64,000 nucleotides of DNA. It comes from Escherichia coli. Its GTDB lineage: Bacteria > Pseudomonadota > Gammaproteobacteria > Enterobacterales > Enterobacteriaceae. Both the position numbers and the translations under genes were made by a program. The notes below the pieces were generated by a model. It was not told the DNA's origin. It did not search any database and saw only the letters and a program-made list of their open reading frames with translations. The number at the start of each line of letters is the position of its first letter. Position 1 is the stretch's first letter. The stretch lies in the NCBI RefSeq assembly GCF_013122565.1, contig NZ_CP053258.1; one strand, written 5' to 3'. Shown in pieces: positions 14,944 to 18,393 of the stretch.

Positions 14944-16227
14944 TTAGTCTTTAGCTGTTGCATTTTGTTTATGAAACAGTTCACGGAACACAGGATAAAT
15001 ATCATCCTGGTCGCGGATGTGCTGCATCGCAAAGTTGTCGAAAGTGGATTGCAGATGCTCATATTCTCGCCACAGTGTCTGATGCGCGCGACGGGTAATT
15101 TCGATATAGCTGTAATAACGAACAACGGGTAATATTTTTTTCGCCAGGATTTCATGGCAAAGCGGAGAGTCGTCGGCCCAGTTATCGCCGTCCGATGCTT
15201 GTGCAGCGTAAATATTCCACTGTGCCGGGTTATAACGCTCTTTCACTACCTCATCCATCAGTTTCAGGGCGCTGGAAACAATGGTGCCGCCTGTTTCCTG
15301 CGAGTAGAAAAACTCATGTTCATCGACTTCTTTCGCCTGGGTATGATGGCGGATGTATACGACTTCCACGTTCTTATATGTTCTGCTGAGGAACAGATAC
15401 AGCAGAATATAAAAACGTTTAGCCATATCTTTAGTGGACTGATCCATTGAACCGGAAACGTCCATCAGGCAAAACATCACTGCCTGGCTGGAGGGATCGG
15501 GCCGCTTCTCGTAGTTCTTGTAACGTAAATCGAAGGTGTCAATGAAAGGGACGCGTTCGATTTTGGCACGTAATTCTGCAATTTCTTTGCGCAGACGTTC
15601 CTCTTCCAGCAGTTGCGCAGGTTCACTGTTGCTGATGATGGCCAAATTCTCTTCCAGCGCATGAAGTTCCCGCCGCTTGCCCGCCGTCATGGCTGTGCGC
15701 CGCGCCAGTGAGTTCTGCAATGAACGAACAACGCTGATATTGGCCGGAACGCCGTTAGCGGTATAACCCGCCCGATGCGTTTTATATTCGGTCAGCTGGC
15801 GTTGTTGGTTTTGTTTCAGATTCGGTAAGGCCAAATCTTCAAAGAGCAGATCAAGATACTCATCTTTCGAAATCTGAAAAACAAATTCATCCTGACCTTC
15901 ACCATCCTGGCTGGCCTGGCCCTGACCACTGCCGGAACCTACGCCACCGCCCTGGGGACGTTCAATTCGGTCGTTCTGGACGAAATGGTCATTGCCCGGA
16001 TGCACGCGGTGGCGCAGACCGCCACGCCCCTGATGAAACATCGGTTCGCTAATATCTTCCGTGGGAATGGATACGGATTCGCCGCTGTCGACGTCAGTCA
16101 CCGAACGCTTATTAATGGCCTCGGAGATCGACTGTTTAATTTGCGCTTTATAACGGCGTAAAAAACGCTGGCGATTCACCATGCTTTTGTTTTTGCCGTT
16201 CAGACGCCGGTCAATAAACCAGGTCAT
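14944..16227 (-). CDS. yeaH: DUF444 protein (YeaH)
   Basis: 427-aa ORF downstream of yeaG. Confidence 0.9.
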
Positions 16228-16339
16228 ATGCCCCCCGTACTACATTTGCCAACTGTATGCTACGCCTGTGTTGCCGCTTCTCTGGCCCACGGTTCGCTGT
16301 CGTTGTAGGCCCGGTAGCATGTATACCGGGCCAGGGTTG

Positions 16340-18274
16340 TTAAGACGATTTACGTACGCGCAAATACCATTCGCACAGTAAACGCACCTGTTTACGGGTG
16401 TAGCCTTTTTCCATCATACGGTCGACAAAGTCGTCATGTTTCTTCTGCTCGTCGGTTGACGTTTTGGCGTTAAACGAAATAACCGGCAACAGCTCCTCGG
16501 TATTGGAGAACATTTTCTTCTCGATAACCGTGCGCAGTTTTTCATAGCTGGTCCAGTTCGGATTGCGTCCGCTGTTATTCGCTCTGGCGCGCAGTACGAA
16601 GTTAACAATCTCGTTGCGGAAATCTTTTGGATTACTGATCCCCGCCGGTTTCTCGATTTTCTCCAGCTCGGCGTTAAGAGACTCGCGGTCAAACAGCTGC
16701 CCGGTATCCGGATCGCGATACTCCTGATCCTGAATCCAGAAATCCGCGTAGGTAACATAACGGTCGAAAATGTTTTGCCCATATTCGGAATAGGATTCAA
16801 GGTAGGCCGTCTGGATCTCTTTGCCGATAAACTCGGCATATTTCGGGATCAGATAACCTTTCAGGAACTCCAGATAGCGTTCTGCCTGCTCTTGCGGGAA
16901 CTGCTCGCGCTCGATCTGCTGTTCCAGGACGTAGAACAGATGGACCGGGTTTGCCGCCACTTCTACATGATCGAAGTTGAACACGCGGGAGAGGATCTTA
17001 AACGCAAAACGCGTCGACAGACCGTTCATCCCTTCATCGACACCGGCATAGTCACGATATTCCTGATACGACTTGGCTTTGGGATCGGTGTCTTTCAGAC
17101 TTTCGCCATCATAAACCCGCATCTTTGAATAAATGCTGGAGTTTTCTGGCTCTTTCAGGCGCGAAAGAATGGAAAAACGTGACAGTGTTTCGAGCGTGCC
17201 AGGGGCGCAGGGGGCGTGAGTCAATTCACTGTGATTAAGCAATTTCTCGTAGATTTTGATCTCTTCGGAAATGCGCAAGCAATACGGCACCTTTACGATG
17301 TAAACACGATCGAGGAAGGCTTCGTTGTTTTTGTTATTACGGAAAGTGACCCATTCGGATTCGTTCGAGTGGGCGAGAATAATCCCGTTGAACGGCAGGG
17401 CGGAGATACCTTCCGTCCCGTTGTAGTTACCTTCCTGAGTGGCGGTTAACAGCGGATGCAGCACTTTTATCGGTGCTTTAAACATCTCAACGAATTCCAT
17501 GATCCCCTGATTGGCGCGGCATAGTGCACCGGAATAGCCATAGGCGTCCGGGTCATTCTGCGCGTAGTGTTCGAGTTTACGAATATCGACTTTCCCAACC
17601 AGCGCGGAGATGTCCTGGTTGTTCTCATCACCGGGTTCCGTTTTGGCGATGGCAATTTGTTGCAGAATTGACGGCCAGACCTTCACTACCCGGAACTTAG
17701 TGATATCGCCACCAAATTCATGCAGGCGTTTTGCCGCCCACGGCGACATGATGGTGCCGAGATAACGGCGAGGAATGCCATACTCTTTTTCCAGAATCTG
17801 CGCATCTTCCTGCGGATTGAAAAGACAGAACGGATGATCGTTGACCGGGCTACGCTCACCGTTGGCGCTCAATACATAAATCGGTACGAGCTGCATTAAT
17901 GATTTCAGTCGCTCAGCAAGCGATGATTTACCCCCACCCACAGGCCCCAGCAGATACAGGATTTGTTTCTTCTCTTCCAGCCCCTGAGCCGCGTGTTTCA
18001 GATAAGAGACAATCTGTTCAATCGCGTCTTCCATGCCGTAAAACTCTTCAAATGCCGGATAACGTGCAATGACCCGGTTAGAAAAGAGTCGAGAAAGTCT
18101 GGGTTCCTGGGCTGTATCGACCATGACAGGCTCACCGATAGCCATCAATAGCCGCTCAGCCGCGTTGGCATAAGCACTGCGATCTTGCCGACAAGTGGTA
18201 AGAAACTCCTGCAGTGTGAACTCTTCGTCCTTGGCAGCTTCATATCGCTGGCGATAGTGATCGAATATATTCAT
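16340..18274 (-). CDS. yeaG: PrkA-family serine protein kinase
   Basis: 644 aa; P-loop GPVGGGKSS. Confidence 0.9.
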   Translation of the reverse strand: MNIFDHYRQRYEAAKDEEFTLQEFLTTCRQDRSAYANAAERLLMAIGEPVMVDTAQEPRLSRLFSNRVIARYPAFEEFYGMEDAIEQIVSYLKHAAQGLEEKKQILYLLGPVGGGKSSLAERLKSLMQLVPIYVLSANGERSPVNDHPFCLFNPQEDAQILEKEYGIPRRYLGTIMSPWAAKRLHEFGGDITKFRVVKVWPSILQQIAIAKTEPGDENNQDISALVGKVDIRKLEHYAQNDPDAYGYSGALCRANQGIMEFVEMFKAPIKVLHPLLTATQEGNYNGTEGISALPFNGIILAHSNESEWVTFRNNKNNEAFLDRVYIVKVPYCLRISEEIKIYEKLLNHSELTHAPCAPGTLETLSRFSILSRLKEPENSSIYSKMRVYDGESLKDTDPKAKSYQEYRDYAGVDEGMNGLSTRFAFKILSRVFNFDHVEVAANPVHLFYVLEQQIEREQFPQEQAERYLEFLKGYLIPKYAEFIGKEIQTAYLESYSEYGQNIFDRYVTYADFWIQDQEYRDPDTGQLFDRESLNAELEKIEKPAGISNPKDFRNEIVNFVLRARANNSGRNPNWTSYEKLRTVIEKKMFSNTEELLPVISFNAKTSTDEQKKHDDFVDRMMEKGYTRKQVRLLCEWYLRVRKSS

Positions 18275-18376
18275 GGTATGCCGTCCTTTCGTTTTTTAGC
18301 ACAGGTTAAGAGCCGTTCATATGAATAGTAGAGGCTCCCGGAAGAGGTAAACTGAACGACGTCTCTTGCTAAAACA

Positions 18377-18393
18377 CAGCAACTCTCATGCCA
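18377..18393 (-). promoter_or_regulatory. Putative sigma54 (-24/-12) promoter for yeaG
   Basis: Minus-strand TGGCATgagagTTGCTG; GG and GC 10 nt apart, about 100 bp upstream of yeaG start. Confidence 0.4.

Follow-up and report, generated by a model that had tools for sequence, protein, structure and literature searches.

We examined a 64,000-nucleotide (nt) stretch of an Escherichia coli chromosome (contig NZ_CP053258.1 of RefSeq assembly GCF_013122565.1; this whole stretch is called the window below, and coordinates count from its first letter). Two adjacent genes on its minus strand, yeaG (16340..18274) and yeaH (14944..16227), very probably make up a starvation-induced transcription unit read from two promoters, one dependent on sigma-54 and the other on RpoS. 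The locus, on a chromosome of E. coli type, is the already known yeaGH operon, and the finding is in that sense correct but ordinary: both the sigma-54 element ahead of yeaG and its interpretation as nitrogen control are supported and published, and the operon, the promoter, its control by NtrC and the role in nitrogen starvation have been in print since at least 2013-2015. Only two parts of the analysis are fresh, the assignment of a von Willebrand A (vWA) domain with a metal-ion-dependent adhesion site (MIDAS) to the modeled YeaH protein and the apparent restriction of the sigma-54 promoter to one lineage, the latter a modest addition drawn from sequence comparison.

The -24/-12 element of the sigma-54 promoter, TGGCATGAGAGTTGCT, occupies 18393..18378 on the minus strand, with its GG at 18392-18391 and its GC at 18380-18379, exactly ten bases apart. 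It agrees with all 11 specified positions of TGGCAC-N5-TTGCW when position 6 may be Y and position 16 may be W, and the form present here, TGGCAT-N5-TTGCT, occurs once in the window. The element lies in the mipA-yeaG intergenic region, is oriented in the sense of yeaG, and is separated from the yeaG ATG by 103 nt; a preliminary description of this DNA had reported such an element about 100 bp upstream of the gene, as we find it, with an end coordinate (18393) that is the 5' end of the motif. On its own the motif is only weakly unlikely, since of 100 dinucleotide-shuffled versions of the window, 7 contain at least one match. Its sense orientation in an intergenic region that bears promoters, its identity to a site mapped in strain K-12, and its recurrence in relatives together place it far beyond chance. 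Taking the C at 18379 as -12 and counting 12 nt from it, we infer that the sigma-54 transcript would start near A18367 and carry a 5' leader of 93 nt (18275..18367, minus strand). This length agrees both with the figure of 93 in the sigma-54 binding study (PMC4591121) and with the -93 boundary of a published reporter construct (PMC10954441).

Published experiments attach this element to nitrogen starvation. Chromatin immunoprecipitation with sequencing (ChIP-seq) of sigma-54 in E. coli K-12 identified site OS18, ATGGCATGAGAGTTGCT, 93 nt upstream of yeaG (PMC4591121), and the microarray counterpart of that method (ChIP-chip) recovered TGGCATGAGAGTTGCTTT upstream of yeaG in Salmonella, with NtrC listed as the activator (PMC3844500). 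In nitrogen-starved E. coli, NtrC ChIP-seq gave a peak at yeaGH (PMC4066584); the published signal spans an 80-bp window and does not resolve the position of an enhancer. The yeaG mRNA rose 36-fold within 20 minutes of nitrogen run-out (PMC4664914), and the authors of the experimental studies placed yeaGH in the E. coli NtrC regulon (PMC6299236, PMC10954441). These results carry over to the present strain. Between mipA and yeaG, the 435-bp intergenic region shows 100% identity to that of K-12, with zero changes where the average rate predicts about five, so that the K-12 promoter results hold here base for base. The sigma-54 and NtrC binding data and the induction of yeaG, all bearing on an identical sequence, thus uphold the nitrogen-starvation control that the preliminary description had proposed.

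Extended -10 elements of RpoS-dependent promoters follow the consensus KCTAYRCTTAA, and the window offers a single 11/11 match to it, TCTACGCTTAA at 18450..18440 on the minus strand, about 47 nt upstream of the sigma-54 element. This candidate is likely the core of the second, RpoS-dependent yeaG promoter that has been published (PMC6299236, PMC10954441) and that the preliminary description had missed. In stationary-phase Salmonella, loss of rpoS reduced yeaG from 5730 to 26 normalized reads, or about 220-fold, and reads over yeaG's 5' non-coding region were RpoS-dependent as well (PMC4330354). An RpoS transcript from TCTACGCTTAA would have a leader of about 160 nt running through the sigma-54 promoter, which fits those non-coding reads. 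The element recurs in related enteric promoters: of 73 related loci, 16 have a match to the consensus at 10/11 or better upstream of yeaG, an enrichment over the 67 found in 1.83 Mb of background. Two points count against this placement of the -10: it is drawn from sequence, with no mapped start found, and the sigma-54 leader contains a weaker -10-like sequence, TCTACTATT (18332..18324). The latter was our initial candidate and was dropped in favor of the perfect match upstream; a scan of the region with the sigma-70 consensus yielded 4 matches against 4.4 expected, none of them useful. Given two promoters, the test of rpoN dependence suggested in the preliminary description would come out mixed, according to growth condition.

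A further layer of control acts on the message. The small RNA SdsR lowers yeaG translation late in starvation, as established with reporters and a compensatory mutation (PMC10954441), and the position and function given there locate its pairing site here as CCTGTGCTAA (18305..18296, minus strand), -31 to -22 from the AUG, with the ribosome-binding site AAGGA (18288..18284) just downstream of it. The SdsR site is conserved in enteric leaders that bear the sigma-54 element.

To place the operon among its relatives, we queried a species-level genome collection with a YeaH family alignment and retrieved 80 related loci; 27 Enterobacterales and 53 non-enteric loci served for gene order, and 23 and 50, respectively (n=73), for upstream regions. 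The gene pair itself is stable: yeaG lies directly upstream of yeaH in all 79 loci with sequence there, and the non-enteric proteins are 81-88% (YeaG, compared with Colwellia, Shewanella and Pseudoalteromonas) and 62-75% (YeaH) identical to those of the window. The promoter is distributed differently. Within 400 nt upstream of yeaG, a perfect TGGCAY-N5-TTGCW is present in 15 of the 23 Enterobacterales loci and in 0 of the 50 loci from Vibrionales, Alteromonadales, Aeromonadales and allied groups, which include Vibrio, Shewanella and Aeromonas, and the remaining 1.83 Mb of the fetched loci, searched on both strands, contain one perfect match. The 15 loci represent 15 enteric species in about 12 genera; in 14 of them the element precedes the ATG by 82-114 nt, and in Brenneria by 227 nt. 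That this distance is nearly fixed in enteric species despite diverged flanks argues for selection on the element.

The eight enteric loci without a perfect element fall into two kinds. In three (Pseudocitrobacter, Edwardsiella and the stink-bug symbiont Pantoea) the element has decayed. The other five (L006, L009, L010, L012 and L026, which are Cedecea, Mangrovibacter, two genomes labeled Enterobacter and one metagenome-assembled genome) have an unrelated upstream region from which the SdsR site is also missing; their upstream regions resemble one another, and TGTTCCCA replaces CCTGTGCTAA. From these sequences, both control layers, sigma-54 and SdsR, seem to have been swapped together.

What follows yeaH also divides the two groups. 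A gene of the SpoVR family (PF04293, E 7e-182) comes directly after yeaH in 51 of the 53 non-enteric loci, whereas none of the 27 enteric ones shows this order (loci L029-L082, 3' of yeaH; L083, 710..2242). The window has no SpoVR gene directly downstream of yeaH; what comes there is a terminator-like hairpin and, after it, cdgI. The K-12 member of the family, ycgB, lies about 630 kb from yeaGH, and no -24/-12 match was found in its upstream region. In the prkA-yhbH-spoVR clusters of other bacteria (prkA-yhbH of Bacillus and the gamma-proteobacterial clusters), the first two genes are orthologous to yeaG and yeaH; spoVR is adjacent to them in nearly all of the non-enteric loci and detached in all 27 Enterobacterales loci, and the sigma-54 element was found only with the detached arrangement. 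Control by nitrogen via sigma-54 thus seems to have been added, in enterics, to the two leading genes of a split three-gene cluster. Genetically the three behave as one unit: yeaG, yeaH and ycgB show cofitness of r > 0.7 in six bacteria (bioRxiv 10.1101/072470), and single and double deletions of yeaG and yeaH have the same phenotype (PMC4664914). The "two-gene unit" of the preliminary description accordingly holds for the transcript, for which the invariant order of the genes and the hairpin with a T-run after yeaH both speak; as a functional module, judged by cofitness, the unit comprises three genes and takes in the unlinked ycgB.

Both open reading frames are intact, and Pfam and NCBIfam agree with the earlier recognition of a PrkA-family gene and a DUF444 partner. 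YeaH (427 amino acids) matches PF04285 (DUF444) over residues 4-421, that is, along its full length (E 2e-190), and the NCBIfam equivalog NF003708 at 841 bits against a cut-off of 466. Five residues, D256, S258, S260, T315 and D346, do not vary among 114 family representatives sharing 37-58% identity with the query, and they constitute a complete MIDAS of the form D-x-S-x-S ... T ... D. An AlphaFold2 model built on the 114-representative alignment (predicted local distance difference test score, pLDDT, 87.3) places them where strands 248-256 and 337-345 end and in the loop that precedes helix 317-331. When the model was compared with the PDB by Foldseek, its C-terminal ~200 residues matched vWA/MIDAS domains with probability 1.00 and E ~1e-6 over ~190-220 aligned columns; among the best 50 of 81 matches with E <= 0.001, nearly all were vWA or integrin I-type domains or larger structures holding one. 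These matches include CMG2, integrin I domains, the MIDAS domain of Rea1/MDN1, and NorD of the NorQD complex (9qhe_G). As modeled, the C-terminal half of YeaH (residues ~230-420) is thus a vWA domain with a MIDAS motif. The experimental papers on yeaGH, including PMC6299236, describe YeaH as resembling no known protein. Its assignment as a vWA/MIDAS protein thus seems to be missing from that literature, and domain databases may already record it. Presumably DUF444 is itself a member of the vWA-like clan of Pfam.

YeaG (644 amino acids) combines an AAA+ ATPase domain at its N terminus (PF08298, AAA_PrkA, residues 19-380, E 1e-187) with a PrkA C-terminal domain (PF06798, residues 382-636, E 9e-71) and scores 1342 bits against a cut-off of 576 for the NCBIfam equivalog NF011999. 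Its Walker A P-loop, G110-P-V-G-G-G-K116-S117, is invariant in an alignment of 33 orthologues, as are R232 and K426. Published variants K116A (Walker A), R232A, K426A and a stop at Y382 all fail to complement (PMC4664914), and the failure of K116A and of the C-terminal mutants indicates that both halves of the protein matter genetically. Sequence and profile searches of the PDB with YeaG found a solved PrkA-family structure (9xip, 9xiq and 9xir; E 7.5e-51), for which a literature search gave no paper, and, besides this entry, only P-loop similarity to Lon-type ATPases. An AlphaFold2 model of YeaG, made from a shallow alignment (33 sequences, 81-99% identical), was poor (pLDDT 53) and was not used for fold comparison.

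Combining these results with the literature, we propose the following sequence of events. When nitrogen runs out, phosphorylated NtrC would activate sigma-54 RNA polymerase at TGGCAT-N5-TTGCT, as published work on the identical sequence indicates, and transcription would begin near 18367 to give the 93-nt leader. In stationary phase and under other stresses, the RpoS-dependent promoter is used, as the literature shows; our candidate for it is TCTACGCTTAA, about 70 nt further upstream. Later in starvation, SdsR, together with Hfq, pairs at -31..-22 beside the ribosome-binding site and lowers translation, as published work shows. The products, judged by the domain content described above, are an AAA+ ATPase fused to a PrkA C-terminal domain and a vWA/MIDAS protein, and according to the published genetics these two proteins and the unlinked YcgB form one module, which dampens the metabolism of starving cells and prolongs their lag when they recover. 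For the biochemical step, two proposals compete: the published Ser/Thr kinase with AceA as its substrate, and ATP-driven remodeling by the AAA+/vWA pair, which on our reading of the domain content is no less likely.

The regulatory part of this model has a rival, in which the -24/-12 match binds sigma-54 polymerase and contributes little, the operon being in effect an RpoS (and sigma-70) unit whose induction by nitrogen starvation is indirect, through guanosine tetraphosphate (ppGpp) and the accumulation of RpoS. Several results weigh for this rival and against a working sigma-54 promoter. In Salmonella LT2, a yeaG promoter fusion kept its full wild-type activity in an rpoN mutant, and arrays showed only a 2.5-fold change that depended on sigma-54 (PMC3844500); the former is due to a second promoter, and the ~220-fold dependence of yeaG on RpoS in stationary phase points to a strong one. 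The NtrC site TGCACC-N4-TGGTGCA was not found, at up to three mismatches, anywhere in the 435-bp intergenic region, including 18394..18709, and an inverted-repeat search of that region returned 6-nt palindromes only, with at most a half-site, GGTGTA, discernible by eye. The sigma-54 ChIP-seq report states that many bound sites are not productive promoters (PMC4591121), and the motif, as noted, arises in some shuffled windows. Set beside the NtrC-activated sigma-54 promoters glnAp2, nac, astC, glnK and glnH, yeaG shares the -24/-12 layout, with GG and GC ten bases apart, as well as induction by nitrogen starvation and an NtrC ChIP signal; unlike them, it has no recognizable NtrC enhancer site upstream, has a strong RpoS-dependent promoter stacked on the sigma-54 promoter, and leads to products other than scavenging or transport functions. 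An indirect effect through RpoS is hard to reconcile with a perfect element held at a near-fixed distance from the ATG in 15 enteric species with diverged flanks, with the NtrC peak at the yeaGH promoter (PMC4066584), with a 36-fold rise in yeaG mRNA inside 20 minutes of nitrogen run-out (PMC4664914), or with the assignment of yeaGH to the NtrC regulon by the experimental authors. We consider this rival very unlikely, and retain the reading of yeaGH as a starvation-induced unit under both a sigma-54 and an RpoS-dependent promoter.

The biochemical part is more evenly disputed. The preliminary description called YeaG a PrkA-family Ser kinase of unknown substrate; membership of the family stands, on Pfam and NCBIfam evidence, the kinase label is contested, and the statement about the substrate is out of date, AceA having been reported as an in vitro substrate of YeaG in the presence of malate (PMC8055822). 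E. coli YeaG has also been reported to phosphorylate itself and casein (cited in PMC6299236 and bioRxiv 10.1101/072470). The rival position is that YeaG is not a kinase in the cell, and that YeaG as the AAA+ component, YeaH as a vWA/MIDAS adaptor and YcgB form an ATP-driven machine that remodels or unfolds target proteins, the kinase and protease activities being weak side reactions or contaminants. What has been found with Bacillus proteins tells against the kinase: B. subtilis PrkA had no kinase activity and showed only slow ATP-dependent cleavage of casein (PMC9512850), B. anthracis PrkA had neither kinase nor protease activity once a contaminant was removed, and the protease activity reported for the B. 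subtilis protein may itself stem from a contaminant (PMC13001217). Unlike Hanks-type Ser/Thr kinases, YeaG has no recognizable protein-kinase catalytic domain; no protein-kinase Pfam family matched any part of it, the C-terminal domain included, even at E <= 10, a setting at which HMMER filters can still drop very weak matches. An AAA+ gene beside a vWA/MIDAS gene is, moreover, the MoxR-type layout, which makes remodeling a serious rival to the kinase. In RavA-ViaA, NorQ-NorD, CbbQ-CbbO, BchI-BchD and Rea1/Midasin, as in yeaGH, a P-loop AAA+ gene adjoins a gene for a C-terminal vWA domain with a MIDAS; here the two adjoin in 79 of 79 loci, the MIDAS of YeaH is invariant and its fold matches those of NorD and Rea1/MDN1, and the invariant K116 of the intact Walker A motif is needed for complementation. 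YeaG differs from the ATPases of those systems in belonging to a Pfam family of its own, AAA_PrkA, and in its extra PrkA C-terminal domain, and the yeaGH module differs from them in having a third partner, SpoVR. Its similarity to MoxR-type models is confined to sub-threshold matches at the P-loop (AAA_5, E 0.011, 16 bits against a cut-off of 22; Mg_chelatase, E 0.22), and an AlphaFold-based study placed B. anthracis PrkA in AAA+ clade III and not in the MoxR clade (PMC13001217). Also weighing against the remodeling machine is the loss of function when K426, in the C-terminal domain, is changed to alanine or the protein is truncated at Y382 (PMC4664914). Because the ATPase does not demonstrably belong to the MoxR clade, the coupling of YeaG to YeaH is genetic only (adjacency, a shared deletion phenotype and cofitness), and the kinase data from E. 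coli stand unrefuted, we treat the remodeling machine as a tentative proposal with a sizable minority chance of being right. The fuller scenario, in which YeaG, YeaH and YcgB are an AAA+ motor and vWA adaptor for remodeling and not a kinase pathway, and in which enterics split off spoVR/ycgB and put a sigma-54/NtrC promoter before the first two genes, is an argument by analogy that we think somewhat doubtful.

The operon has several smaller features besides. A possible stem in the sigma-54 leader (18339..18308, minus strand) pairs GGGAGCC (18339..18333) with GGCUCUU (18314..18308) across an 18-nt loop. In a targeted duplex test, the 12 nt immediately 5' to the SdsR site paired best with the homologous 5' arm, over 5-8 bp, in 14 of 14 sigma-54-type leaders; the arms co-vary, as in GGAGAGC/GCUCUCU of Brenneria and Dickeya, and the loops range from ~10 to ~155 nt (loci L003-L027). 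RNAalifold on a MAFFT alignment of 13 leaders did not recover this stem, and the full-length E. coli leader showed no better folding than its shuffles (z = -0.05). A conserved stem in the sigma-54 leader is possible on the evidence of the duplex test. A 75-amino-acid open reading frame at 18271..18498 (minus strand) overlaps the yeaG leader and both promoters and is probably not a gene.

Between the genes, 7 nt after the yeaG stop, a hairpin with a perfect 9-bp GC-rich stem and no T-run (GGCCCGGUA-uacaugc-UACCGGGCC; 16332..16308, minus strand) could set the ratio of YeaG to YeaH. GC-rich hairpins of differing sequence occupy the same place in most of the enteric relatives listed and are missing where the yeaG-yeaH spacer is short. 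The operon probably ends at 14939..14911 (minus strand), where a consensus scan found a terminator-like hairpin 5 nt after the yeaH stop, with an 11-bp stem containing 6 GC pairs and a T-run, TTTTTAGCTCA, as its tail.

The locus is nearly universal in the species: of 5426 complete E. coli genomes, 5425 carry the segment 14800..18760, with yeaG, yeaH and mipA as its annotated genes. Its best identity to any of them is 98.8%, which suggests a somewhat divergent source strain. Compared with K-12 MG1655, it carries 50 substitutions in 3961 bp (98.7% identity), unevenly spread: all 21 nucleotide differences in yeaG are synonymous, with none non-synonymous, so that the YeaG proteins are identical, whereas YeaH has three substitutions (G96V, L365I and G427D) and the promoter region has no change. 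The neighbors are those of K-12, with mipA upstream and divergent and cdgI downstream. The window's operon and the K-12 yeaGH operon (b1783-b1784) are thus the same locus, with strain-level differences only and none in the promoter region.

Elsewhere, the window differs from E. coli strain DETEC-S792 (locus L001) in having no ~3.4-kb segment corresponding to yeaV, yeaW and part of yeaX and in having two extra segments (differences at 1949..1992, 25398..26233 and 31870..33231). The extra segments had suggested an origin of the window in a Shigella rich in insertion sequences; this was rejected, since they are not insertion sequences and consist of variable chromosomal genes, one encoding a DUF1266 protein and the other a SIMPL-domain protein that 943 of 5426 genomes have. 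An anti-phage defense reading was likewise rejected, as PADLOC gave just IetA, at E 0.007, with no stretch passing alone.

The window also contains a second sigma-54 -24/-12 element, TGGCACGAACCCTGCA, at 44876..44891 on the plus strand; it is identical to the astC promoter site, which is entered in the E. coli sigma-54 ChIP-seq table as CTGGCACGAACCCTGCA (PMC4591121). The window thus holds two members of the NtrC regulon, yeaGH and astC, 26.5 kb apart. Matches to the NtrC consensus across the window number 20 against 22.8 expected, which is chance. The match nearest to yeaG, TGCACCACCGTAATGCA (19512..19528, two mismatches), lies upstream of the sigma-54 promoter by about 1.1 kb, past mipA, where yeaE begins, and is probably fortuitous, as the window-wide count equals chance.

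With a promoter that is specific to enterics, nitrogen control as known from E. coli is not to be assumed for the yeaGH relatives of Vibrio, Shewanella and Pseudoalteromonas. For the module itself, whose biochemistry has been disputed as that of a kinase, a protease or neither, an AAA+/vWA machine would supply a mechanistic frame, and the predicted MIDAS residues of YeaH (D256, S258, S260, T315 and D346) would offer a concrete handle that can be mutated.

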